Below are positions 5,477-40,940 of a stretch of DNA of 64,000 nucleotides, one piece after another (position 1 is the stretch's first letter; every line of letters starts with the position of its first letter). The position numbers were made by a program, and so were the translations under genes. The stretch lies in IMG/VR virus record IMGVR_UViG_3300023106_000001, positions 65,485-129,484 of that record; one strand, 5' to 3'. Below the pieces are notes generated by a model. The model did no database searches. It had not been told where the DNA came from and saw only the letters and a list, made by a program, of their open reading frames with translations. The stretch is from a virus.

Positions 5477-8258
5477 TTCTTTTACAACCAGTTTCTTGAG
5501 TAACTTTGGACAGGGAGGTGATTTTTCATCTGCTTTACCAACCCAGACACTTTTAGAGTCACAAAAAAATGACAAATGGGTTCAGCTTTGTTTGGATAGA
5601 CTTGAAACTATTGCCGTGCGCCAATTTAATAGAAATATTGAGTTTCGAGATTTTTACAAAATGAAGGAAGGTACTTTAATATACTCCGACTACGGCCTAG
5701 AAGATTTCTCAAAAGAAATTATAAGACTGCGCGGAGAAACAGATTATCCAGTTCATGCTAAACATTATGACTTCTTAGGAATTATATGTAACCAAATTGA
5801 ATCAGATTGGATTACAAGCAAGGCCGCATTTAGAATAGACAATACAGATCCCGTTTCACAAAATGATTTTACTAGAGATCAAGACAGCAAATTATGGGAA
5901 TTCACTCAAAAGAATTTTAATCTAGAATTAGAACGTAAATTACTTGCAAGAGGAATAGTAGTAAATGAAGACAGACAGTTTCAATCCGAACAGGAAATGC
6001 AAGCTTATGCTCAGGAACTACAACAGCAAAAAGATCAACTTGTTCCGCCAGAAGCAATTCAGGAGGCAATGTTTAAAAACTGGAAAACAACAGCTACTGA
6101 GTGGGCGGAAAAAACATATGAATTAGACCAAGACCGTTTTGGAATGGAGAAAATGAGCCGTCAAGAGATGGTTGATAGGCTTCTAACAGGAAGATGGTTT
6201 AGACATTATCATATAGGATATGACTATTATAAGCCAGAAAGATGGCATCCCTGCCAAGTATCTTTTTCAGAAGATTTAGATATAGAATATCCACAAGATG
6301 CAGAATACGTATCTTTCTTGACTCAAATGTCACCCTCTAAATTCTTAAATAGGTTCGGCGACAAAATAGATGAAGACACTCAAAAAAGATTAATGGGTTA
6401 TTACAACCAAAATCAAAGTGGAGGGTATAGTGGAGGAGCTTCTGTCAATCAAGTAATACAAAATAACTTCGGGCAAGTACAACAATTACCATTTGCAGGA
6501 TTTCATGATTATGAATTAGGTCTTGAAATTCAAGACACATTTGGAGTCCCTATGGGAGAATCAACAGTTGTAGTAGACGGTCAACAAAAAGTAGTACCAT
6601 CTTGGTATTCACCATTAGCAAGAGGCGGAGGATTTTTAAGTCAAAATACAATGAGCGAATTACGTTCAGACATTGATTTAAGATCAGACACACTGCAAGT
6701 AACAGAATCATATTGGCGTTCATACAAAAGGGTTGGTATTTTAAATTATATCAATGAAGATGGATATATGGATCAGGTTTTTACAACAGATGATTTACTA
6801 CCAGAATTTTTAAAAGAAAATGAAATTACCACGCTTAGAAAAATCTCTTTAGAAGAGGCTGAACTAAGAATGGAACCTAATACAATTGCATACACTTGGA
6901 TACCTGAAATTAGGTGGGGCGTAAAAGCAAAATCACACAACAGTTATTTAGATAAAGATTTATATATCGGCGGAAAAGCACTACCATTCCAAATTAAAGG
7001 AACACTAGATGGTGGAAGTAATATATATGATGCTAAAATACCAGTGGCAGGATATATAGGAGACTCAATAGCTAAAAAACTACGTCCATATATAATTAAA
7101 CATAATATCGTTTTAAATCAAATATATTCACTACTTGAAAAAGAATTAGGAACATTCTTTCTATTTGATATTAAATACTTACCTTCAGAATATAAAGGCT
7201 CAGGAAATACAAGACAGGCTTTAGAGCAAATGTACGATTTAATTCAGGACATCGGAATTGTTCCTGTAGATACTTCTCGCCAAAACTTAGAGGGAGGGCA
7301 ACCTGCAATGAACGCTTTTGCTACACAATCTATCGATTATACAGCAATGATTAACAATAGAATGAATTTAGCAGTTCAATTTAAATTGCAAGCTTTAGAG
7401 CAAATAGGCATTACTCCACAAAGAATTGGAACACCAGATCAGTATTCGACCGCGGAAGGAATAAAACAAGGAAATACAGCTTCATACGCACAAACAGAAG
7501 GTCTTTTTGCAGTACAAGCGGAAGCAGATAAAAGAGCCTGTTTATTACATTTAACTGTAGCACAATATTGCCAGAAAAACAATAAAGACTATTCATTCTT
7601 ATATACTAAGTCTGATGGTGAGAAAGCTTTTATAGAATTAAATGATCCGTATTTTTCTTTACGTGAGTGGTCTTTGACTATGGATATTACCTCAAATGGA
7701 AAAAAGGAATTAGAAACATTGAAAAACCTGTTATTACAAAACAACACAGTAGGAGCAGACATATTGGATATGGCAGAGATTGTGACATCAAATTCAATGA
7801 CGGCTATCATAAGTCACGCAAGGAAAAATCGTCTAGATTTACAGGCTCAAACTCAACAACAACAAGCACACGAAAAAGAAGTTGCTCAGATGCAAATTGA
7901 TGCTGCGGATAAAGCAATCCAGGCTAAGTATAATCAAGAAACTTTAATACAGAAAATGGATGACGAAAATAATTTAGAAGTTAAGAAATTAGATACTTAT
8001 GGTAAAATGTCTATTAATCAAAATTCTGATTCTAGTTTGTACGATAGATTAGATAGGGCTACGGAATTAGCTTTGAATGACGTACATCAGTCAAATGATT
8101 TTGCTCTGAAAGAAAGAAATTTAGATATCAAGGAAGACGAAATGAATTCTAGAAAAGAAAGAGACGCTAAAGAATTCCAATTAAAATTAGACCAACTTTC
8201 AGCTAAGAAAAGAGCCACTGAGGTACAACTACAAACTAGTCTAATTAACAAGAATTAA
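5469..8258 (+). CDS. portal protein (crAss-like, long C-terminal coiled-coil barrel)
   Basis: 929 aa between terL and MCP; HYD.LG.I, crAss-type portal core, Q/E/K-rich helical C-terminus. Confidence 0.85.
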   Translation: MSDSFTTSFLSNFGQGGDFSSALPTQTLLESQKNDKWVQLCLDRLETIAVRQFNRNIEFRDFYKMKEGTLIYSDYGLEDFSKEIIRLRGETDYPVHAKHYDFLGIICNQIESDWITSKAAFRIDNTDPVSQNDFTRDQDSKLWEFTQKNFNLELERKLLARGIVVNEDRQFQSEQEMQAYAQELQQQKDQLVPPEAIQEAMFKNWKTTATEWAEKTYELDQDRFGMEKMSRQEMVDRLLTGRWFRHYHIGYDYYKPERWHPCQVSFSEDLDIEYPQDAEYVSFLTQMSPSKFLNRFGDKIDEDTQKRLMGYYNQNQSGGYSGGASVNQVIQNNFGQVQQLPFAGFHDYELGLEIQDTFGVPMGESTVVVDGQQKVVPSWYSPLARGGGFLSQNTMSELRSDIDLRSDTLQVTESYWRSYKRVGILNYINEDGYMDQVFTTDDLLPEFLKENEITTLRKISLEEAELRMEPNTIAYTWIPEIRWGVKAKSHNSYLDKDLYIGGKALPFQIKGTLDGGSNIYDAKIPVAGYIGDSIAKKLRPYIIKHNIVLNQIYSLLEKELGTFFLFDIKYLPSEYKGSGNTRQALEQMYDLIQDIGIVPVDTSRQNLEGGQPAMNAFATQSIDYTAMINNRMNLAVQFKLQALEQIGITPQRIGTPDQYSTAEGIKQGNTASYAQTEGLFAVQAEADKRACLLHLTVAQYCQKNNKDYSFLYTKSDGEKAFIELNDPYFSLREWSLTMDITSNGKKELETLKNLLLQNNTVGADILDMAEIVTSNSMTAIISHARKNRLDLQAQTQQQQAHEKEVAQMQIDAADKAIQAKYNQETLIQKMDDENNLEVKKLDTYGKMSINQNSDSSLYDRLDRATELALNDVHQSNDFALKERNLDIKEDEMNSRKERDAKEFQLKLDQLSAKKRATEVQLQTSLINKN

Positions 8259-27961: not shown

Positions 27962-28627
27962 ATGAGTAATAATGAAATCACCGATATTATTTTAAATACC
28001 TTAAAGGCTAATTCAAAAGACAGTAGAATTAGCAGAAGACTTGTTTTATCTACTTTAGAGAGCAAAGCAAAATTTTATATTAGTCAGAAATTAAATGATA
28101 AGAGTTTATATAGAGAAGCTAATATATATAAAGAAATACCTTGTACGGAGTTTAAAAACATTGATATTATAGATTGCCCAATAGTGGAGTTTAAAACTTG
28201 TAAGACTTTAATGAGAAGTAAGAAAAAAATTCCAGAACTTATTTGGTCAAAATACGGACACACCTTAAAAGAAGTCACAAGTATAGATGGAAGTTACGCA
28301 TTTGAACCTATAACAGCCACACAATACCGAAAAAATAAGGAAAGAACGGGAAAAACAAATAAAAAGTATTTTTACATTAAAGATAATTATATTTACATCC
28401 CAGACTACGAATTTTATACAGGAAATCTATATTTGATTTCTCAGGATTTATATGAGTTAGAGCAAATATCTGAATGTAGCAAAAATAAATGTGACTCTGT
28501 TTGGGATTTTGAATTTGTCTGCCCTAATAAATTAGAAGAAGTTGTAATACAGGAAACATTAAAACAGTTATCTTTAACTAAGCAAATTCAAGAAGATACA
28601 AATCCGAATTTAAATCCGAATGGCTAA
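27962..28627 (+). CDS. tail ring/tubular protein
   Basis: 221 aa; crAss-type ring pattern (LMRSKKKIPELI...VTSIDG...YFYIKDNYIY...F.CP..LE). Confidence 0.65.
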   Translation: MSNNEITDIILNTLKANSKDSRISRRLVLSTLESKAKFYISQKLNDKSLYREANIYKEIPCTEFKNIDIIDCPIVEFKTCKTLMRSKKKIPELIWSKYGHTLKEVTSIDGSYAFEPITATQYRKNKERTGKTNKKYFYIKDNYIYIPDYEFYTGNLYLISQDLYELEQISECSKNKCDSVWDFEFVCPNKLEEVVIQETLKQLSLTKQIQEDTNPNLNPNG

Positions 28628-29216
28628 GAAATATTTAAAAAGAGATGCTGTAAAAAGGGTGTTTAGATGTACTAATCATAAAAAACAAATACCTCCTACA
28701 AAACAGCTTCCCGAACCTTTATATGAAGAAAGTGCTAAATTTCTAAAGTCCGAATTAATATTTTCTCCTCGAGCACATAAGTTTTACAGACAAAAGACAA
28801 AGTATAAGAAACGGATAGCTAAACAAAAATTATTTTTTCTAATGCGAGAATGCCTTAAAGAAATTAAGAAACGTATGTTAGAAAATGAAGCAGGTGTCTT
28901 TATAGAAGGTTTTGGATATTTTTGTATGATGCGCCACCCAGAGAGAAAAATAAGAAATTTTTATATTGATGGGTATGTAGTAAAAGGTAAATATCTTCAA
29001 ACTATGGGATGCATGTATAGCCCAGTGTTCATGCCAATAAGAAAAGAGAGTTCCATGCAACAATGGACAATGGATAAAGCTTTTGATCAACGACTCATCA
29101 ACAGTTTAAAGTACAGGCTTAGAAAAAAAAGTAAAAAATATAGAATGTCATTTATGTTATTGAATAATTTATATGGCCGAGAAAATTCTAAAATTGATCC
29201 CCCAATATTAAAATGA
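28620..29216 (+). CDS. HU/IHF-like basic DNA-binding protein
   Basis: Very basic; helix followed by GVFIEGFGYF, resembling the V.I.GFG.F HU/IHF signature; crAss-like phages carry IHF-like genes in this region. Confidence 0.6.
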   Translation: MAKKYLKRDAVKRVFRCTNHKKQIPPTKQLPEPLYEESAKFLKSELIFSPRAHKFYRQKTKYKKRIAKQKLFFLMRECLKEIKKRMLENEAGVFIEGFGYFCMMRHPERKIRNFYIDGYVVKGKYLQTMGCMYSPVFMPIRKESSMQQWTMDKAFDQRLINSLKYRLRKKSKKYRMSFMLLNNLYGRENSKIDPPILK

Positions 29217-30082
29217 CAACATTAAAAAATGTACTGGCCGACATAACATCAGATTTAAAAATGTATGATGAAATGGGATTGATTGACGACATCTCATTAA
29301 AACTATTCTTATTAAATGAATTAAAGGGTTTTGGTGGTAATGTCATGGAAGTATACCCTCATGTATTACAAATTAAAAACGGCCAAGCTACTTTACCTGA
29401 TAACTTTTTCTCGCTTACTAAAGCTGTAAAAACAAGTCCGATAGGATGTGTTCCAGAAGCAGACTGCAACGAGCCAGAATTAATAAACAGTTATTTTTAT
29501 AGAGTTAGAAAAGAAGCCTCTGAAATTTGGGACAATGGTTCAAAAATATTAGAAGGAGACTATAAGTATGTAGAAGAGAAAACTTATTTTTTTAATAAAG
29601 ATTTAAAAGCTAATTTTTACTATGGAAATAATACTATTTTAAAATTAGTTCCTGGATTTGATAAAAGTAAATTAGATTTAAAATGTGAAAATGTGTATGT
29701 TAAATCATCACCTTATCATATAAATATTATAAATAATACTTTACAAACAAATTTTTCAAATGGCTTTATATGTATTTGGTATCAGGGATTATTAGTGGAC
29801 GAAGAGGAAGAAATTATTTTACCCGAAGATCCAAATAAAAATATTTATAAGTACCTTATTTCAACAGGAAAAGCCAAAGTTTTTGAATTAGTGTGGGCAA
29901 ATGACGATGATGCTAACGTACTAACTAAATTACAGTTTTACAAAGGAGAATCACAAAAAGATAAAACAGCTGCTTTAGCACAAGTAAGGTTTAATTCTAT
30001 CACAGGAGAAAATTGGGATGAAGGGCTAAAACAAAGAAGAGATAAGAGATTTAGAAAATTCAATAATTTCGGCAGAGGTTAA
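29213..30082 (+). CDS. tail ring/tubular protein
   Basis: 289 aa; ATLPDNFFSL and LQTNFSNGFICIWY.G patterns; position just before the muzzle gene. Confidence 0.6.
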   Translation: MTTLKNVLADITSDLKMYDEMGLIDDISLKLFLLNELKGFGGNVMEVYPHVLQIKNGQATLPDNFFSLTKAVKTSPIGCVPEADCNEPELINSYFYRVRKEASEIWDNGSKILEGDYKYVEEKTYFFNKDLKANFYYGNNTILKLVPGFDKSKLDLKCENVYVKSSPYHINIINNTLQTNFSNGFICIWYQGLLVDEEEEIILPEDPNKNIYKYLISTGKAKVFELVWANDDDANVLTKLQFYKGESQKDKTAALAQVRFNSITGENWDEGLKQRRDKRFRKFNNFGRG

Positions 30083-33100: not shown

Positions 33101-36100
33101 TCAATTGACTCAAAGTGATTCAGTGATATATCCATTAGGGATAACAATAGATGAAACTACAATTAATTCATTTTTAGATATTGCGGTAAATAACGGATTA
33201 TTAAGCGAAGAAAAAAGAAATCAAATATCAGGATATGAAATATTCAGAGGAGATATAGCGCAAGATAGAAGTATAATGTCTTCAGGGCTTATATTTGATA
33301 TGAGAAAGTACATAGATGATAATGACAAAACACAGTCTATTTATTATTCTAATTACCCTTACAATGATCTAGGTAGTGATATTTTAAATTATTCAGATAA
33401 AAGCAGAACAACATTTATCCCACATCCTTACAATGGATTGAAAAATGATAAATTCACGTACCATAGCCCAGAAACAGATTATTATAGATACACATTACCA
33501 ACAGAATTATCTGTGCAGGGATATGTATTCGGCCAAACAGATAACAGTTATTTTAATGAAGTAAAAGATCATCCAAAATTTGTAATCTTAACAAGAAAAG
33601 CAAAAGATTTAGCAGGATTATTAGCAGGATTAGAAGTAGCTACAGAAGTTGCAGTACAGTTGGCAAATGCAGGAGAGAATTATAGAGTTGCAGCAGGATT
33701 TGTAGTGTCTGTGAATCCAGCAGGTATTGTACTTTCTATTATAGCAGGAGCCTTATCGGCAATTAGTTCTGTAGTTGTAAATTATGGCCGACACAGATTA
33801 GATTGGATAAAAGCATTTAGAGATTTAGGGCAACCTGAAAACTTCTCTTCATATTTTCATTCTAGTGCTAAGTATAATTACATGCAATTACTACAAGAAA
33901 ATGGAAATCAAATCAGGTCTCTATATTCCGCAAAGTATTTAAAAGAAGGTAATTTTTCACAAGTAGATGATGTCACAGGAGAAAAAATAAGTATAAATAA
34001 CTTAGACAGAGAAAAATCTGTTTTATTAACTTTAGGAGTTTCTAATACATTAAATTACCCCACAGAATATGTATCTTTTGATAATAATAAGATAGATACA
34101 AATACCTCGTCTTTAACTATAGCAAGTCAAAATAATGCTTGTACTACAGGGATAAGTAAAGTAATAAAGAAAAATGTGGCCAATCCATACGTAGCTTTAA
34201 AAAACTACTTACCTTCACAATACGGTACAGTTAATTCTATAAAATGGTTGTCAACAGGATACAGAGGAGATTTAAAAAATCCTAAAACAACCTGTTTGTC
34301 TATTTTTGGAGGGGACACTTTTATTTCCAGACATACACTTAAAAGAAAAATGCCGTTGTTTACAGATACAGCATTTGGTTTAGCAAGTTTAACACCATTT
34401 AATTATAAATTTTATTCTAATATAGGGAGAGAACCTAGATTTTATGTAGATTATGAAGTAATGACAGACTACAGAAGACAGTCTGCTTTATTCCCAGACA
34501 TAGATTATGATTTAAAATTTGATTGTGAAACTAAACAAACTAATTACTATAGACCACCAAGCAAATTTTATCTATATTATTATGGAGTACCTAATTTCTT
34601 AACTGAAACTAGAATAAATACCTGGAATAGAACCGCCGAACCAACATTAGAAAGGAACTTTTACCCAAATACAGGAGATACATCTGAATGGACACAAGAA
34701 AAAAATGTATCAATTAAAAAAGGAGAATTTTTCTTTTATAATCAAATATATTCTAAACCTGTAACCACTACAGCATATAGAACATTGTCAGATAATTTTG
34801 ATCAGTCAGAAAGTGATTGTAGGAATGATAAGCCTAATGGTATAATGTGGTCACAACCAGATAACAGTGAAAACAATTATAATGACCCTTACTTAAACTA
34901 CAAACCATTAGACTTTTACGAGTTTGATAGTAAATACGGAAAACTAAAAGATATCCGCACAATTGAAAGAGAGCAAATTCTAATTAGACAAGAAAATGCA
35001 ACTTCTCTATTCAATGCTATTGATGTGGCCGTAGATGATGGTAAAAGAGCGGATTCAAGAAATTTATCTTCAGCTTTTGCAAGAAGACCAATGACCTATT
35101 CAGAAACAGATCTTGGATTTGGAGGAACAGGAAGTTCAGAATCAGTAAGCTGTGAATTTGGACATTATCATGTAGATGCTAAAAGAGGTCAAGTTATTGA
35201 GATCCCAAGTGGTGGTCAAGGAATGAACGAGATATCGAGTCTTATAAACGGTAAACCAAGCGGAATGAGAAACTGGTTTAAAGAACATCTACCATTTAAA
35301 ATACTAAAATCCCAAATAGCTAATATAAGTGATTTAGATACAGATAATGCAATAAATGGAGTTGGTATAGCTATGGGTTACGATAGTCGATTCAGACGCG
35401 TATTTATAACTAAAAAAGACTATATACCTAAAGTTGATCCATGTCTAAAATTTGACAAAAATATTGGTTTTTACACAGATTGTGGAGAAAGTGAGATAAC
35501 TTGTCCGATAGGGTACGAATATAATCCAACAACAGAGTTATGTGAAAAAACAACATTATCAGGAACTTTGTGCCCAAATGGTTATATTTATGATGAAGAT
35601 ACACAAACGTGCACCCTTTCAACAACAGTATCCGCAGATTGTGATTGTGAAGCTACAGTAGTTGCAACACCGCCTTCTCAAAATATAAATAGTGGCCAAA
35701 CAACAAACATCACTTTAAGTGGAGAACCAGGAGCCCTATTCACATGGACAGTGGTTCAAAGTGGAGTTACAGGAGCAACAAGCGGATCAGGAACATCAAT
35801 AACTGACTTATTAATTAATGACGGAATTACTTCAGGTACGGCTGTTTATACGATTACACCTACAATTGATGGATGTATTTCAATTACAACAGTTGTTACA
35901 GTGACAGTTCAACCTCCAGCCATAAATTTTGATGTTGTTTCGACAAATTGGGGAACATTGTCTACAGTGAGTGCTTGGGAATCATTTTTCTTAACGCAGT
36001 CTGGAACAACTTTTGCAACAATAACTAATTTTTCATTAGTTGGAGGAAGAGTAAGATTTAGAGTTAATACTAATATGACAAGTTTAATAATAGACAGTAA

Positions 36101-36806
36101 AAATGTAACTACAGTTAATATTGTAAAAATACCAAGTCTTACAGGTTTAAATTTTGTTACTAATTCTATTGTAGTTTTTGACCCTATTGAAGCTTTATCA
36201 AATGGGTTGTTAAATTTAAGTTTACAAAATAATAATATAGTGAATTTCAATCCAACAATTCCTTTACCAACTAGTTTAAAAAATTTAAATTTAGTTAGTA
36301 ATGATATTGTCACATTTAATCCTACAATTCCTTTACCAAATGGACTTGAAACTTTGAATTTACAAGCTAATAAAATTGTAACTTTCAATCCCACAATTCC
36401 TTTACCAACTAGTTTAAAAAATTTAAATCTGGCTACTAATGATATTGTAATATTTAATCCAAGTTTAGCTTTACCAAGCGGACTATTAGATTTAGGATTA
36501 CAAGTTAATGATATTGTCACATTCAACCCCACAATTCCTTTACCAAGTAGCCTTCAGCAACTATTCTTAAATGCTAATGATATTGTAATATTTAATCCAA
36601 CTTTAGCTTTACCAAACAACCTTCAGCGACTATATTTAAATAATAATAAAATTACTGTTACATCTTGGGACACGGAAACAAGTTGGATAACGTTAGCTGG
36701 AAATAATGGAATACTAGAAGCATCAAGTAATATACCTGCACTAGGTATTACAGGAACAAATACAGAGACATTACTTTTAGCTAAAGGATGGACTATAATA
36801 CCTTAA
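30105..36806 (+). CDS. tail muzzle/stabilisation protein (P22 gp10-like), N-terminal part, with C-terminal Cys-rich, PKD-like and LRR additions; TTG start
   Basis: 2233 aa; crAss-type stabilisation motifs (IYFTD...PRY, IFGGDTFISR, FG.YHVDAKRG, GYDSRFRRVFITKKDY); then CPxGY repeats, a PKD-like domain and LRRs. Confidence 0.75.
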   Translation: MAKPDIKLNQPQRGLNRDQYNLGEADYSTLLNGLFDGIDGGSFTLTNEMSNLLSSRFKAGFKVINGTNDIYSNSTYFFLVNPTTGVGEFGQIKNVQQIQNIDDLQNDCEGCVKYFDLAEPLENITQTELNIYETLLNDECHILAGEPEKGFQFSINSPIKKTVIKNEKCGKTIYFTDDNTPPRYIVLDNLQQYKQTGDINCGVDEIIPTCLDADKLLIFKRYNLPELTPISIELGGRLKLGTYEFLIAYTDQLGNEISEYTSITNPIQIFDRNNVTLTQAELGTPTNFSIKLQVGNLDKRFTHYKIAVIQTTLEDVGVTRFFVEGIHNINDTTVIYGGEQNKQTIELSDLIRENLYIQRWEFITESNNSLIGAGITTEKEINLQPVVNLLGSFLKWQTHIAKEDLYKDGVKDSLYLSINRDEVVPYSIRFLLEGGYKTSLFPLINRNAKESDLIEVPITNKDRVSIESNKSACNSTDRTKYWQYYNTATEDEDFCSSDSLEIVEVQEDIQKNCVYQNVITTPGATFSIETTQNYVDLTTFITDTITNGDCLTYANCPSPSDPNSYPFCNYFDIDCYSNLNCAPNYNNCEAPILDDEELIVGAIVGESATMVDAIFPTEYIKTKPPQTCTIYELDTSTGNPKRNTDFETAFMQCRGGFPPQPRTAFYRTLQFENLECTYADAIAEVTPTSSFNQGYFHDYYGAETVAELQTTKDTVASGAEWTNKLHKGVLWFKGDILSRDRFVLEVSKIKELQQTDNISAGNDIRVSIYNKCNSTTPLYSKVVDAAQGEMLFFQKADNSLDWTITNEAGISTNIGQISGQNFYVAIDAKIVSQENCAEELVYRTAPLSGCFAVVIRSREYSRIDVTYESIRIDKKQTYTATCTFNKPVANSCIATPYKKGDFAYWESQEIYPDNTSLYDSSTLKIKPSDINIFQREKFELEFVEGTTISEVFIPILDSEGNYQWKKDSVEKPLVNFTCRNIRHFKFPDNKVSPFMYENPQLTQSDSVIYPLGITIDETTINSFLDIAVNNGLLSEEKRNQISGYEIFRGDIAQDRSIMSSGLIFDMRKYIDDNDKTQSIYYSNYPYNDLGSDILNYSDKSRTTFIPHPYNGLKNDKFTYHSPETDYYRYTLPTELSVQGYVFGQTDNSYFNEVKDHPKFVILTRKAKDLAGLLAGLEVATEVAVQLANAGENYRVAAGFVVSVNPAGIVLSIIAGALSAISSVVVNYGRHRLDWIKAFRDLGQPENFSSYFHSSAKYNYMQLLQENGNQIRSLYSAKYLKEGNFSQVDDVTGEKISINNLDREKSVLLTLGVSNTLNYPTEYVSFDNNKIDTNTSSLTIASQNNACTTGISKVIKKNVANPYVALKNYLPSQYGTVNSIKWLSTGYRGDLKNPKTTCLSIFGGDTFISRHTLKRKMPLFTDTAFGLASLTPFNYKFYSNIGREPRFYVDYEVMTDYRRQSALFPDIDYDLKFDCETKQTNYYRPPSKFYLYYYGVPNFLTETRINTWNRTAEPTLERNFYPNTGDTSEWTQEKNVSIKKGEFFFYNQIYSKPVTTTAYRTLSDNFDQSESDCRNDKPNGIMWSQPDNSENNYNDPYLNYKPLDFYEFDSKYGKLKDIRTIEREQILIRQENATSLFNAIDVAVDDGKRADSRNLSSAFARRPMTYSETDLGFGGTGSSESVSCEFGHYHVDAKRGQVIEIPSGGQGMNEISSLINGKPSGMRNWFKEHLPFKILKSQIANISDLDTDNAINGVGIAMGYDSRFRRVFITKKDYIPKVDPCLKFDKNIGFYTDCGESEITCPIGYEYNPTTELCEKTTLSGTLCPNGYIYDEDTQTCTLSTTVSADCDCEATVVATPPSQNINSGQTTNITLSGEPGALFTWTVVQSGVTGATSGSGTSITDLLINDGITSGTAVYTITPTIDGCISITTVVTVTVQPPAINFDVVSTNWGTLSTVSAWESFFLTQSGTTFATITNFSLVGGRVRFRVNTNMTSLIIDSKNVTTVNIVKIPSLTGLNFVTNSIVVFDPIEALSNGLLNLSLQNNNIVNFNPTIPLPTSLKNLNLVSNDIVTFNPTIPLPNGLETLNLQANKIVTFNPTIPLPTSLKNLNLATNDIVIFNPSLALPSGLLDLGLQVNDIVTFNPTIPLPSSLQQLFLNANDIVIFNPTLALPNNLQRLYLNNNKITVTSWDTETSWITLAGNNGILEASSNIPALGITGTNTETLLLAKGWTIIP
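36140..36655 (+). repeat. leucine-rich repeat array, 23-aa (69-nt) units with 138-nt higher-order duplication
   Basis: About 7-8 units of L..LxLxxNxI..FNPT.PLP; near-identical DNA blocks at 36246 and 36384, and at 36438 and 36576. Confidence 0.9.
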
Positions 36807-36842
36807 AAAATTAAAATATGGCTTGTAATTGTCTGAGTGAAA

Positions 36843-36874
36843 TTTGTGTATTAACAATATTATTACTATATTTG
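36843..36874 (+). promoter_or_regulatory. Bacteroidota-type promoter in front of an HNH-like gene
   Basis: TTTG 36843-36846, 20-nt spacer, TATATTTG 36867-36874. Confidence 0.75.
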
Positions 36875-36892
36875 TAAAAAATTAAAAATAAA

Positions 36893-37477
36893 ATGATTGA
36901 GATTGATCACAGATTAAAACCTTCTGTATATGGTGTTGGATATAGAGGGATAGGTAAGTATAGTAGTTCTAATAAGTCTTACAAGATATGGCAAAGTATG
37001 TTACAAAGGTGTTATGACCCCAAATACCATAAAACGAAACCTTCTTATATTAAATGTGAAGTACATCAAGAATGGCACAATTTTCAAAACTTCGCAAAAT
37101 GGTTTGAAAAAAGGTATACAGTTGAAAAAATGTTGGGTTGGGCTTTAGATAAAGATATTTTAATAAAAGGTAATAGAATTTACTCTCCCGAAGCATGTTG
37201 TCTAGTTCCACTTGAAATTAATAGTTTATTTATAAAAAGCGGAAAATCAAGAGGAAAATATCCAATAGGTGTTACAAAATCAGGTAAAAAATTTAGAGCC
37301 AGATTTGGTAAAGATAGAGATCATTTAGGAATATTTAATACTCCTGAAGAAGCTTTCCAAGTATACAAGATCGCCAAAGAAATTTATATTAAAGAGATTG
37401 CATATAAATGGCGCAGTAAGATTACAGAAGCATGCTATTCAGCATTAATAAACTACCAAGTAGAAATAACCGATTAA
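36893..37477 (+). CDS. HNH-like (beta-beta-alpha) homing endonuclease-like protein, copy 1
   Basis: W.SMLQRCY...Y..C.V..EWHNFQNFA.W...LDKDIL.KGN.IYSPE.C.LVP.EIN; AP2-like C-terminus. Confidence 0.75.
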   Translation: MIEIDHRLKPSVYGVGYRGIGKYSSSNKSYKIWQSMLQRCYDPKYHKTKPSYIKCEVHQEWHNFQNFAKWFEKRYTVEKMLGWALDKDILIKGNRIYSPEACCLVPLEINSLFIKSGKSRGKYPIGVTKSGKKFRARFGKDRDHLGIFNTPEEAFQVYKIAKEIYIKEIAYKWRSKITEACYSALINYQVEITD

Positions 37478-37479
37478 TT

Positions 37480-38421
37480 ATGCCAATATGTAATTGCCCA
37501 AATGAGACATGCTCTCAACAAACAATAGAAGGAGTAGTATATTGTAACTGCACAGTGGTTATAAATGATATTGTATGCGATGATGGTTGCACAACAATAA
37601 TACTTCCAAATGGCAATGTGCAATGTTCTTGCACTGAGAGTGTTGAACCGACCATAGAAAAAGTAAAAACACCTGTTTCAGTGACAGACCCTAATTATTT
37701 TCAGGATGTCAGCTGGACCATCGCATTTTCCCCTATAGAACAAAAATGGATAGGATGGTATTCTTATACACCAAATTATTATATTCCGCACCAAAATTAT
37801 TTCCAAACAGGAATAAATCAAAGTTCAGATTCAACAGAATTAGGATTATGGTCACACTTACTAACTAATAGAAGTTATCAAGTATTCTACGGTAAAAAGT
37901 ATCCTTTCTTAGTTGAGTATATGTTGAAACGAGAATATGGAGAAATACTGTTAAAAACGGTTGGTTTTGAGATGGAAGTGAGTAGATATCATAATGAGTA
38001 TGACGCAGCACAAATAGATGATAAGCCATTTAACAAGATGTGGATTTATTCACCGTTTACTAATTCGGGAGAACTTAGACTTGTACCAAATACAGGGCAA
38101 CTTTCTTTGATTTCTAAATATCCTATTACAGCAAAAGATGGTTCTTATCAGGAGATTTTGGTAACTAAGGTACATAATCGATACACAACTAATTATTTTT
38201 ATAATAGAATGCTCTCTCATAAAGCCAATAATCCTTGCTGGTTATGGGATAAGAATCAAATAAATAAAACAATCAATACAGATATTGTAAAATTTAGCGG
38301 TAAAAATGTCCTAGAGCCAATGAGATCTAATGTATTCTCAATTAGGTTAGAACAATCACTAGAGACAAGACTTAGGTACGCAATTAATATTTTAAGCTCA
38401 AAAGTAAATTTAGAATTATAG
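37480..38421 (+). CDS. probable C-terminal part of the tail muzzle/stabilisation protein, encoded separately
   Basis: ATG 37480 (MPICNCP...); Cys-rich start, then DVSWTIAFS...WIGWYSYTPNYY and FNKMWIYS...SGELRL, motifs I associate with the C-terminal third of crAss-like muzzle proteins. Confidence 0.65.
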   Translation: MPICNCPNETCSQQTIEGVVYCNCTVVINDIVCDDGCTTIILPNGNVQCSCTESVEPTIEKVKTPVSVTDPNYFQDVSWTIAFSPIEQKWIGWYSYTPNYYIPHQNYFQTGINQSSDSTELGLWSHLLTNRSYQVFYGKKYPFLVEYMLKREYGEILLKTVGFEMEVSRYHNEYDAAQIDDKPFNKMWIYSPFTNSGELRLVPNTGQLSLISKYPITAKDGSYQEILVTKVHNRYTTNYFYNRMLSHKANNPCWLWDKNQINKTINTDIVKFSGKNVLEPMRSNVFSIRLEQSLETRLRYAINILSSKVNLEL

Positions 38422-38452
38422 TTGCAAATATCAAAATAAAGTTGTATTTTTG
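38421..38452 (+). promoter_or_regulatory. Bacteroidota-type promoter in front of an HNH-like gene
   Basis: GTTG 38421-38424, 20-nt spacer, TATTTTTG 38445-38452. Confidence 0.65.
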
Positions 38453-38469
38453 TAAAAAATAAAAGAGGT

Positions 38470-39231
38470 ATGCAAAAAAGATTAGACAGGGAAGAAATAA
38501 TAGGAAAAACCTACAAAAATAATTTAGGGCAAGATTTCACAGTAATAGATTATAAAAATCCTAAGAATATAGATATTAAATTTGAGGATGGGACTATTAT
38601 CTTAAATAAGAGGTTTACGGCAGTATTATCAGGGAGTATAAGAAATCCTAACTTCCCTATTAAATATGGAGTTGCATTTATAGGTCAAGGTAAGTATAAA
38701 TCTACTATAGAGGGAAAAGATACTAATATATACACCGCTTGGTCTGGAGTTCTCAGAAGATGTTATGATAAAAATTTTCTTATTAGTAATCCTAGCTACT
38801 ATAAAGTTACTGTTTGTAAAGAATGGCATAACTTTCAAAACTTTGCAAAATGGTACGAGGAAAATTGGAAACCTTATATGAAAGGATGGCATGTAGATAA
38901 AGACATTCTTAAGAAAGGGAATAAAATTTATAGTCCAGAAACATGTTCACTAGTCCCTGTCGAAATTAACTGCTTGCTTTTAAAATGTGATGCTTCGAGA
39001 GGTATTTTACCTATAGGTGTATTTAAAGATGGAAAAAAATATGTAGCTAAATTAGTTAGAGACAAAGGAATTCAAAAATATACTAGACATAACACGATTG
39101 AAGAAGCTTTCCAATCATATAAAGATAAAAAAGAAGCACACATGAAAGAGGTTGCCGAAATATGGAAACCTAAATTAGCTACAAAAACATATGAAGCTTT
39201 AATAAATTATCAAGTAGAAATAACAGACTAA
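38470..39231 (+). CDS. HNH-like homing endonuclease-like protein, copy 2
   Basis: Paralog of 36893 with an extra N-terminal domain (KTYKNN.GQ.F.VIDY); ends in ALINYQVEITD; stop overlaps the next ATG. Confidence 0.75.
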   Translation: MQKRLDREEIIGKTYKNNLGQDFTVIDYKNPKNIDIKFEDGTIILNKRFTAVLSGSIRNPNFPIKYGVAFIGQGKYKSTIEGKDTNIYTAWSGVLRRCYDKNFLISNPSYYKVTVCKEWHNFQNFAKWYEENWKPYMKGWHVDKDILKKGNKIYSPETCSLVPVEINCLLLKCDASRGILPIGVFKDGKKYVAKLVRDKGIQKYTRHNTIEEAFQSYKDKKEAHMKEVAEIWKPKLATKTYEALINYQVEITD

Positions 39232-40940
39232 TGGCGCTAATAAAGGAAAAAATAAAGCAACAAAACAAAGAAGAATATGCCTATAAGAAAATGCTTAGTT
39301 ATGGATGGACTCCTGATCAAGCTGCGGGTATTGTTGGTAATTTGATAAGAGAAAGTAATCTGAATACTACTATATTAGGAACAGCGGATACAAAAGGATC
39401 AAAAGGGATCGCGCAGTGGCACAGTGGAAGATTAGAGGCCTTACAAAATAAATACGGATCAAATTGGACAGATTTAGACAACCAATTAGATTTTGTAAAT
39501 TGGGAGTTAAATAACACTCATAAAAAAGCAGGCGATAAGTTAAGAACAGCACAAGGTGTTTATAATACAGGTAGAATTGTTTCAGATGATTATGAAAGAC
39601 CTAAAGTAAAATTTCATGCTGATACTAAAAGACAAAAATTAGTATTAAACACTTATAAAAAATTATCAGGTAGTTCCCTCACAGACTCAGACCAACAACA
39701 GTTTTTAAAAGGAACAGCACAAAGAGCGATAGACAGTTATACGCCACCTACTAACGAAGTACCTCTTACATACACACCAGAAGTAAGTAGTTTTGTAGAA
39801 CCAATTAATATACCTACCTTAGCGCCAGAAAATGAAACAGAAGCTGTACAAAAGGCAAAAGAAGAATTAAATAGTAAACAACAGCAACAAATTAATCAGC
39901 AAAGATTTATACAAGATTTATTAGTAGCTTCACAAGTAAAGTATGTAGATCCTAACCAAGTACAACAAGAAGACATCTATAATCAAGAGCAATACTTTCA
40001 AAGAGGGGGTATTTATGATCTTCCTATGAATAATGCTAATCCCATAACACCAAAGCAATTCACTCTAGAATACCTTAACTCACCTAAATACAGAGAACGT
40101 TTAAAAAATAGCGGATATGAAGATGTTGATGGTGAAATAAAAAGAAGATTAGCAGGAACAAACCCTGAAGTTTTTCCATATAAGGCTCCACCAGCACCAA
40201 ATGTAATACAGTCGTTATTAGGCAAAAAACAAGAAGAAGGGGAAAGAGGCAGTTATTACAGTCCATTCACAAAGAAAATACAATTAGATTCTAAATATAA
40301 TATTGATACTCATAGAGATGTTTATCCAAATGCAACCCAACCAACATCTGAGGAAATAGAGACTCACGAGAGATCACATGCCACTACTAGTTTATTCCCA
40401 GAAGATAGGTTCAATAAAACAGATATAAGAAGGCTTACTAATTATCATAAAAAAGATAAAAATATTCCTGAACATGATTTAATCCCAGGAGAAAATAAAG
40501 CAGATTTAGATGCGTTCAGATACCTATTAAAAAGAGAAGGTGTTTATGATGCAGGAAAGCAAGATTTTACTCCCGAAATGTTTAAAAGAACTAAAAAATC
40601 TGCCACTAAAGATAGATTACAAAGTGTTTATTCAGACGAAGCTATTATATATTTAATGAATAATGTAGCGCAAAATGAAGATAATAATTTAATTTATGGA
40701 CAAAATGGAGGAGTTATTAATGATGATCAAGGTTATTGGAATCCAGATAATTGGGGTAAGGTTGTAGAAATAAATTCAAATAATATTTCAATGCAAAATG
40801 TAAATCAACCCCTCATTGGCGTATCAAATGAAACAGGAGAAAGTAAGTTAATGATGCCTGGAAAGAATTATATTTTCGAAAATACGAATAAAGTTACTGA
40901 ATACCCTACAAAAAGAAATAAAAACAAAAGATTTTCATAA
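39231..40940 (+). CDS. ejection/cargo protein: phage tail lysozyme domain plus zincin-like (HExxH) domain
   Basis: N-terminal GWTPDQAAGIVGNLIRES...GIAQW...RL...QLDF...EL (Phage_lysozyme2-like); THERSH at 40365-40379 with a downstream E..AD motif. Confidence 0.75.
   Translation: MALIKEKIKQQNKEEYAYKKMLSYGWTPDQAAGIVGNLIRESNLNTTILGTADTKGSKGIAQWHSGRLEALQNKYGSNWTDLDNQLDFVNWELNNTHKKAGDKLRTAQGVYNTGRIVSDDYERPKVKFHADTKRQKLVLNTYKKLSGSSLTDSDQQQFLKGTAQRAIDSYTPPTNEVPLTYTPEVSSFVEPINIPTLAPENETEAVQKAKEELNSKQQQQINQQRFIQDLLVASQVKYVDPNQVQQEDIYNQEQYFQRGGIYDLPMNNANPITPKQFTLEYLNSPKYRERLKNSGYEDVDGEIKRRLAGTNPEVFPYKAPPAPNVIQSLLGKKQEEGERGSYYSPFTKKIQLDSKYNIDTHRDVYPNATQPTSEEIETHERSHATTSLFPEDRFNKTDIRRLTNYHKKDKNIPEHDLIPGENKADLDAFRYLLKREGVYDAGKQDFTPEMFKRTKKSATKDRLQSVYSDEAIIYLMNNVAQNEDNNLIYGQNGGVINDDQGYWNPDNWGKVVEINSNNISMQNVNQPLIGVSNETGESKLMMPGKNYIFENTNKVTEYPTKRNKNKRFS

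Follow-up and report, generated by a model that had tools for sequence, protein, structure and literature searches.

A crAss-like phage muzzle gene that appears to be divided between two adjacent cistrons at a variable display loop

The stretch of DNA analysed here, referred to below as the window, comprises 64,000 nucleotides (nt) of IMG/VR virus record IMGVR_UViG_3300023106_000001 (positions 65,485 to 129,484), a complete virus record of 140,992 bp with direct terminal repeats that was assembled from a metagenome and represents a 141-kb crAss-like phage. Within it, two open reading frames (ORFs) on the plus strand, here called A and B, match the N-terminal and C-terminal halves of the muzzle, a nozzle-type tail-end protein that surpasses the other tail proteins of crAss-like phages in size and conservation, and a free-standing gene of the HNH homing-endonuclease type lies between them (Table 1). 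Our favoured explanation, to which we assign a probability of roughly 85%, is that the muzzle of this phage is made from two adjacent cistrons, that the split was inherited, and that the HNH gene arrived later. The plus-strand gene order is CrAss_Ring_2, a small ORF, a CrAss_Ring_1-like gene, A, the HNH-like ORF, B and a second HNH paralog, downstream of which come a tail-lysozyme protein and then large virion proteins on the same strand. ORF A stands directly after the tail ring protein genes, which is the position of a muzzle-type gene. The initial annotation of this DNA, made from its letters and their translations, had described A with its PKD-like and leucine-rich repeat (LRR) parts, the HNH-like gene and B, and each of these features was found where it had placed them.

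The two ORFs match consecutive parts of phrog_37948 (PHROG 37948, a profile of 2289 positions) and likewise of gp042 of the Cellulophaga phage phi4:1 (Lightbulbvirus), where A is 44% identical to residues 6-1740 and B is 43% identical to residues 2052-2285. In A, the muzzle core comprises amino acids (aa) 1-1773 and includes GYDSRFRRVFITKKDY at aa 1758-1773 (nt 35376-35423), its last letters being RRVFITKKDY (to nt 35423); the stop codon of A follows at 36804-36806. B has its ATG 2 nt past the HNH stop and opens with a Cys-rich return stalk (aa 1-65, nt 37480-37674, with nine Cys within the first 51 aa). From 37675 onward it continues with a conserved propeller-C region and C-terminal beta domain, and it contains YFQDVSWTIAFSPIEQKWIGWYSYTPNYY. 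A Pfam search of B found no family, and searching PDB sequences with either B itself or a 57-row B profile gave chance matches only and no muzzle. As a side observation, A begins with TTG, 22 nt past the ring-protein gene, and its homologs use ATG at the matching position.

Table 1. Features of the muzzle locus and its surroundings, in window coordinates
Feature	Position	Strand	Basis
CrAss_Ring_2	27962-28627	+	E 9e-28
CrAss_Ring_1-like	29213-30082	+	E 2e-5, under gathering score
ORF A, muzzle N-terminal half, 2233 aa	30105-36806	+	phrog_37948, E=0, profile positions 7-1742
Outgoing Cys-rich stalk of A, 8 Cys, two CPxGYxYN...C repeats	35424-35654	+	translation
PKD-like domain of A, aa 1872-1937	35718-35915	+	PF19406 PKD_5, above gathering score
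LRR solenoid, free C-terminus of A, about aa 1975-2233	36027-36803	+	PDB 4u09, LRR_8
Original A/B spacer, 11 nt	36807-36817	+	aligns with the 10-11 nt spacer of L005-L008
Relic B start, dead 19-codon ORF (MACNCLSEIC...)	36818-36877	+	alignment A1
HNH-family homing-endonuclease-like gene, free-standing, 194 aa	36893-37477	+	phrog_953, E 3e-63
ORF B, muzzle C-terminal half, 313 aa	37480-38421	+	phrog_37948, E 2.6e-57, profile positions 2051-2278
Second HNH paralog, directly downstream of B	38470-39231	+	phrog_953, E 4e-57

The initial annotation had stated that the two motif blocks seen in A and B lie in one polypeptide in crAss-like muzzles, separated by a variable loop, and had placed the split inside that loop. 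Both statements agree with the homologs. The phi4:1 gp042 protein is a true sequence homolog in the same gene neighbourhood; it differs from the A and B pair in being a single ORF of 2289 aa, annotated in GenBank as a virion protein by tandem mass spectrometry, with a loop of about 310 aa that holds a non-Cys insert and no endonuclease gene at the site. The 'Muzzle protein' of csAssE-Sib (L002) is likewise a homolog in a single ORF (2257 aa) with no endonuclease gene at the loop site, and its motifs ...RVLITKKDY and ...YFKDVSFTIGYS... are separated by only about 35 residues. A TnpB-family gene (1530-2753 of L002) lies directly upstream of this unsplit muzzle gene. An exhaustive, profile-free search with B returned 913 relatives, of which the best 150 cluster representatives were examined. 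Unsplit long proteins carrying both motif blocks made up 114 of these 150, which makes one gene the rule and the arrangement in the window the exception.

The loop between the blocks has a median length of 33 aa in the 114 unsplit representatives, and in 28 it extends over 200-630 aa. Long loops of unsplit proteins carry VWA domains, DUF5122 beta-propellers, PA14 domains or Cys-rich repeats that score as CBM_14 or cEGF-like; by these contents, the loop serves the family as a display site, in use in roughly a quarter of the relatives. Three unsplit proteins (P0017, P0018 and P0025) are particularly close in design to the window, since their loops run out through CPxGYxYN...C repeats, enter a globular insert, and return through C-x-C or CPEGC repeats that end just before the motif YF-DVSWT. 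The start of B (MPICNCP...) aligns to the first return repeat (compare IVCTCPEGY in P0018). The A and B pair of the window thus has the loop design of these proteins, with the chain ended after the displayed module.

The divided arrangement is not confined to this genome. B occurs at 85-95% identity in six IMG/VR contigs (L003-L008). L003 and L004 have the arrangement of the window, HNH gene included; L005-L008 (B 85-91% identical) have no HNH gene, and 10-11 nt lie between the A stop and the B ATG. More distant loci (L009, L010-L012, L013 and L014, with B 41-53% identical) are split as well, without an endonuclease gene and with gaps of 4-40 nt. Relative to A, B is in the +1 frame at some junctions and in the +2 frame at others, never in the same frame, and an in-frame stop lies 6-42 nt upstream of B's ATG at every one of them. 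At least 13 independent contigs, drawn from different samples, carry A and B in intact form. In pairwise comparisons with six relatives, the ratio of nonsynonymous to synonymous substitution rates (dN/dS) is 0.01-0.04 in the last 450 core codons of A, 0.07-0.27 in the stalk-PKD-LRR module and 0.07-0.14 in B; dS reaches 1.8. The module evolves fastest, at 77-81% aa identity versus 96-99% in the core. By these ratios purifying selection acts on all parts, and each half is a working gene.

A tree of the C-terminal domain, made by a quick search with support from the Shimodaira-Hasegawa-like approximate likelihood ratio test (SH-aLRT) only, places the split forms in two well-supported clades mixed with unsplit ones, which requires at least three state changes. 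In addition, the unrelated crAss-like contig L020 carries a GIY-YIG/NUMOD3 endonuclease gene exactly in the muzzle loop (7297-7998), between an N-half of 1828 aa, which stops past the first CPEGY repeat, and a 260-aa C-half, with gaps of 3 nt and 2 nt; its nearest IMG/VR relatives (67-68% identity) are unsplit. Because of these state changes and the endonuclease gene in the L020 loop, we regard the loop site as one that is hit repeatedly. A candidate third kind of split, in which the C-half of L022 would have gained an extra N-terminal domain, was rejected when the gap proved to be a run of N in the scaffold. The equivalent ring genes of L012 and L020 also match PF24228 and PF25702.

What the split frees in the window is a long C-terminal module. 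The CPxGY repeats of A begin at aa 1800 and 1823 and give a weak CBM_14-like match (E 1e-4). The PKD_5 match (PF19406) has E 8e-9 with the whole A protein and 3e-10 with the excised module, and its relatives are present in type IX secretion system (T9SS) and gliding proteins of Flavobacterium. The LRR part matches LRR_8 (E 7e-5) and the Leptospira LRR protein 4u09 of the PDB (E 5.5e-11, aa 2008-2200). It has 156 stand-alone LRR relatives, mostly on phage-sized contigs, one of them in a Flavobacterium genome at 46% identity. The phage collection held a single distant LRR relative, from Flavobacterium phage MaF61, and no second PKD-LRR copy was found in the phage's own genome. Since the LRR relatives are mostly stand-alone and the PKD_5 relatives stand in Flavobacterium proteins, it is reasonable to regard the PKD-LRR module as captured from elsewhere, which is how the initial annotation had described it. 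The PKD_5 relatives and the one LRR relative in a Flavobacterium genome also make a Flavobacterium-like bacterium the probable host; close DNA relatives of the phage come from leaf-litter and rhizosphere metagenomes. An antisense ORF of 207 aa (35909-36532, minus strand) lies within the LRR-coding repeats and has counterparts in L003 and L004; most likely it arises as a side effect of the repeated codons.

The end of A is conserved in relatives (...LLLAKGWTIIP) and is the natural terminus of the LRR domain, while the module before the free end varies among split loci. It is PKD-like plus LRR in the window, L003-L006 and L008; PKD-like plus another beta-rich domain in L009; a 125-aa, Cys-framed module (CDD-LPRTQL ... 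SSLP-C) in L007 and L010-L012; and a DUF285/BspA-type repeat domain in L014 (E 4e-54). The N-half module of L013 matches none of these named domain types. The B halves of L007 and L010-L012 are only about 45% identical despite the common 125-aa module, which suggests that the SSLP-C module moves between lineages. LRR and DUF285 solenoids turned up exclusively in split forms, and none of 30 long loops of unsplit proteins (a small sample) contained either. It is possible that solenoids need a free end, and that globular inserts with adjacent termini fit a closed loop. The proposal that the split freed a C-terminus for a new ligand-binding module is therefore borne out in part: the restriction of LRR and DUF285 to split forms speaks for it, and the VWA, propeller and PA14 domains in closed loops speak against a free end being needed for display as such.

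Structure prediction was consistent with the sequence assignment. The AlphaFold model of B has a predicted local distance difference test (pLDDT) score of 82.6, and its residues 75-311 superpose on residues 1180-1371 of the phicrAss001 muzzle gp44 (7qol_P) with Z 11.7 and a root-mean-square deviation of 3.2 over 174 residues (VIA-align). This muzzle was the only strong PDB match of the model (Foldseek E 1.6e-6; next unrelated structure Z 5.9), followed by weaker matches to C-terminal parts of podophage nozzle proteins (P22 gp10, cyanophages A4 and Pan3). Because PDB sequence searches of B gave no muzzle match, the kinship of B with gp44 is visible by fold only. The corresponding region is the C-terminal propeller/platform part in gp44 and P22 gp10, and it is present in all 114 unsplit homologs. 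Taken with the profile match in Table 1, the fold leaves B related to muzzle C-termini, as the initial annotation had held. The model of A 1360-1860 (pLDDT 73.6) shows a clear propeller fold; its top match places aa 1570-1773 on gp44 1024-1200 (Z 8.7), with generic beta-propellers reaching Z 7.7 and nozzle proteins close. Specific kinship of A with gp44 would thus rest on B and on synteny. Projected on gp44, the break falls at about residues 1180-1200, within the propeller situated after the 'crass' domain (Bayfield et al., Nature 2023, PMC10172136). The description of the displayed module as sitting at the tail tip is consequently only loosely true, since the modelled break is in the propeller part and not in the distal 'crass' domain.

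A complex of A 1360-1860 with B was predicted with a separate alignment for each chain and with control runs. The ipSAE score was 0.74 (0.73-0.75 between runs) against 0.00 for the best control, a mark reached by 58 of 80 solved complexes and by 2 of 110 mismatched pairs. The runs had at least 95% of contacts in common, and partner pLDDT was at least 79. The tightest predicted contacts form an antiparallel ladder between A 1766-1774 (RRVFITKKDY) and B 75-83 (FQDVSWTIAF), the two strands that make up a hairpin in homologs with a short loop, and the outgoing stalk of A (1787-1848) is predicted to contact the return stalk of B (2-69). The suggestion that the halves would assemble in trans is thus favoured by the model.

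By these comparisons the muzzle is broken within a beta-propeller blade, at a hairpin loop that is hypervariable, and the chain stops past the displayed module, ahead of the return stalk. Half A ends in the stalk, the PKD-like domain, the LRR solenoid and a free C-terminus; half B starts with the return stalk and would then supply what remains of the propeller strands, together with the C-terminal beta domain. The halves could reassemble in trans through the antiparallel pairing of RRVFITKKDY with FQDVSWTIAF and pairing of the stalks, possibly locked by disulfides, and six PKD-LRR copies would project from a hexameric muzzle as built-in adhesins. Several points weigh against this picture. The match of A to gp44 is only about 1 Z unit above that of generic beta-propellers. 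The complex score may reflect likeness to a known structure, given that single-chain gp44 is in the PDB and that the halves of a split gene tend to score well; the complex model suggests that the two parts still fit, and binding itself is beyond its reach. The two polypeptides and their assembly are read here from DNA and modelling, and the adhesin role of the PKD-LRR module from its domain type. Finally, B starts 673 nt behind A, past a selfish gene, and equal output of the halves is not guaranteed. In favour of the picture, a terminator scan found no terminator-like site on the plus strand between A and B.

The HNH gene is a late arrival at this junction. A DNA alignment (A1) places its insertion point about 30 nt inside B's 5' end: of the relic B start, homology to B's 5' end is confined to 36818-36847; just ahead of the relic, 36812-36814 reads TAA in the frame of B, and the first eleven codons of B recur as a fresh copy directly after the HNH stop. 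The gene invaded the junction 30 nt into B, supplying a new start, and the original one stayed behind as a relic. Over 37000-37400 it is 100% identical to the copy in L004, with flanks at 94-98%, as expected for a recently spreading element. A Pfam search of its protein found no family; the genome holds four HNH paralogs and many endonuclease genes overall. The sequence around ATGGCTTGTAATTGCCC may be a candidate cleavage target of this HNH gene. The resident HNH gene was rejected as the cause of the split because the endonuclease-free relatives (L005-L008 and L009-L014) are split too, and its insertion lies inside B.

The second HNH paralog is 54% identical to the first, and B thus lies between two endonuclease genes. 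This paralog is absent from L003, L006, L008 and the contigs of runs X2 and X3; in the DNA contigs of the latter two runs there is a clean skip of 819 nt at its site, with 11 other letters instead. In run X4, 807 letters of unrelated sequence take the place of the paralog (window 38421-39240), and in L004 its identity falls to 58-71%. A jump from 36833 to 37582 in a contig of run X3 was not counted as an endonuclease-free variant, there being only 30 letters on one side. Between the window and L003, identity is 98-100% up to 37600 and from 39400, and 83-95% across B; in the comparison of the window with L003 and L004, dS is 0.25 in B and 0.03 in the core. The divergent patch looks like the product of recombination with boundaries at the nuclease genes. 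We also noted that TAnnTTTG, which we take to be the Bacteroidota -7 promoter element, occurs 18 nt before the first HNH ATG, with TTTG 16-22 nt upstream and partly within the relic start (36843-36874), and again 25 nt before the second HNH ATG (38445-38452). The plus strand of the window contains 46 copies of TAnnTTTG and 7 of the two-part form. The endonuclease cassettes may bring their own promoters. A DNA search with a promoter pattern of fixed spacing gave a chance-level match only, and the sigma-70 promoter scan uses a model that is uninformative for a Bacteroidota phage.

How the split itself arose can be read in another way. It is possible, though we judge it appreciably short of an even chance, that an endonuclease insertion first split the loop and was then lost imprecisely, and that the HNH gene of the window marks a re-invasion; assembly in trans would be unchanged under this scenario. 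L020 provides just such an insertion in a lineage with unsplit relatives, and the abundance of endonuclease genes in the present genome, the four HNH paralogs among them, and the scattered split clades on the tree are also in keeping with it. However, the 4-40 nt gaps of eight endonuclease-free split loci hold no endonuclease remnant, the HNH insertion in the window lies off the A/B break, and exchange of the complete loop cassette by recombination could spread the junction just as well.

Two further readings would deny that there are two working chains. The HNH gene could sit in a self-splicing intron of group I or II, or a frameshift, ribosome bypassing or a split intein could yield one full-length muzzle. 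Group I introns with endonuclease ORFs do occur in some phage structural genes, and an endonuclease gene between the halves of one gene is what such a reading would expect. Yet a scan with Rfam at E up to 1 found no family over 34500-39000, only 86 nt and 2 nt flank the HNH ORF, and the endonuclease-free relatives keep the stop and the ATG, so that the absence of a group I intron claimed by the initial annotation is supported. The varying frames and the stops upstream of B exclude splicing, frameshift and read-through as joining routes, and A terminates at a natural, conserved LRR end. A Pfam search found no Hint/intein domain in A or B; A 1774-2233 gave only PKD_5, LRR and CBM_14-like matches and B 1-84 gave nothing. 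We consider any such joining highly improbable. Equally little can be said for one of the ORFs being a decaying remnant, with B or the PKD-LRR tail non-functional, or for the split being an assembly error. Selfish insertions often break genes and the genome is metagenome-assembled; against this, both ORFs recur intact in independent contigs, their dN/dS of 0.07-0.27 was obtained at dS up to 1.8, and B corresponds to a region that no unsplit homolog lacks. A muzzle made as two adjacent, working cistrons accounts for these observations better.

The divided muzzle may be compared with several known systems. In phicrAss001, gp44 forms a hexameric tail-end assembly (PDB 7QOK/7QOL) and is encoded right after the ring genes, as here. 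Unlike the pair in the window, it consists of a single polypeptide of about 1370 aa; its loop bears neither a Cys stalk nor a PKD or LRR module, and its sequence has no detectable similarity to A or B. The length of gp44-type muzzles varies by insertions (PMC10172136). The nearest structural precedent for a split is the nozzle of Pseudomonas podophage A1002, formed by the nozzle-base gp42 and the nozzle-rope gp39 (PLoS Biol 2026, PMC13730344). There, two chains rebuild a beta-propeller and platform in trans by strand complementation, seen by cryo-electron microscopy, whereas the assembly proposed here is a model. The residue ranges in that paper put the cut at a fiber-dock insertion between propeller-N and propeller-C, from which we infer that it is the same topological place as the muzzle break. 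The systems also differ: A1002 belongs to another phage family, its gp42 and gp39 genes are neither adjacent nor colinear, no endonuclease gene is reported there, and what is freed there is a rope of 300 A to which separate fibre dimers dock, rather than a PKD-LRR module.

A second precedent is the splitting of genes into pieces by free-standing homing endonucleases, of which T4 gene 39/60 with mobA is an example. The nrdA gene of Aeromonas phage Aeh1, split by mobE, is another (PMC3045599). In this kind of system an essential gene lies in two cistrons around an endonuclease gene and the products reassemble without splicing. The window shares with such cases the endonuclease gene between the halves and purifying selection on both. 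It differs in that the gene is structural, that the break is a display site with a variable module, and that the endonuclease-free relatives L005-L008 and L009-L014 do not carry an intact gene. Unsplit endonuclease-free relatives, a hallmark of those cases, may instead be found in the lineage of L020. Split nozzles and genes in pieces are thus known; a crAss muzzle in two chains would be new, the searchable literature having yielded no account of a split muzzle gene for crAss-like phages.

We have also considered, as a doubtful extension of the two-cistron explanation, that the break is an evolved socket, in which a cut at the loop equivalent to the fiber dock would allow elongated, free-ended receptor-binding modules, such as LRR and DUF285 solenoids, that do not fit a closed loop, and in which endonuclease genes repeatedly settling at the junction would drive the co-conversion of module and B between co-infecting phages. 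If this were true, selfish nucleases would be an engine of host-range cassette exchange in soil crAss-like phages. The mosaic B and its two polymorphic flanking endonuclease genes in any case offer a natural system in which to study whether homing endonucleases set recombination boundaries in structural modules.

Collectively, these observations identify a 313-aa "hypothetical protein" beside an endonuclease gene as the C-terminus of a muzzle that pangenome tools would count as two genes. They describe a natural split form of the muzzle, whose model suggests that the propeller can be completed in trans, and the common place of the break in A1002 and in this phage points to a permissive site in nozzle-type proteins. 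Moreover, the adsorption proteins of crAss-like phages are largely unknown, and the muzzle loop provides a concrete candidate for their receptor-binding determinant.

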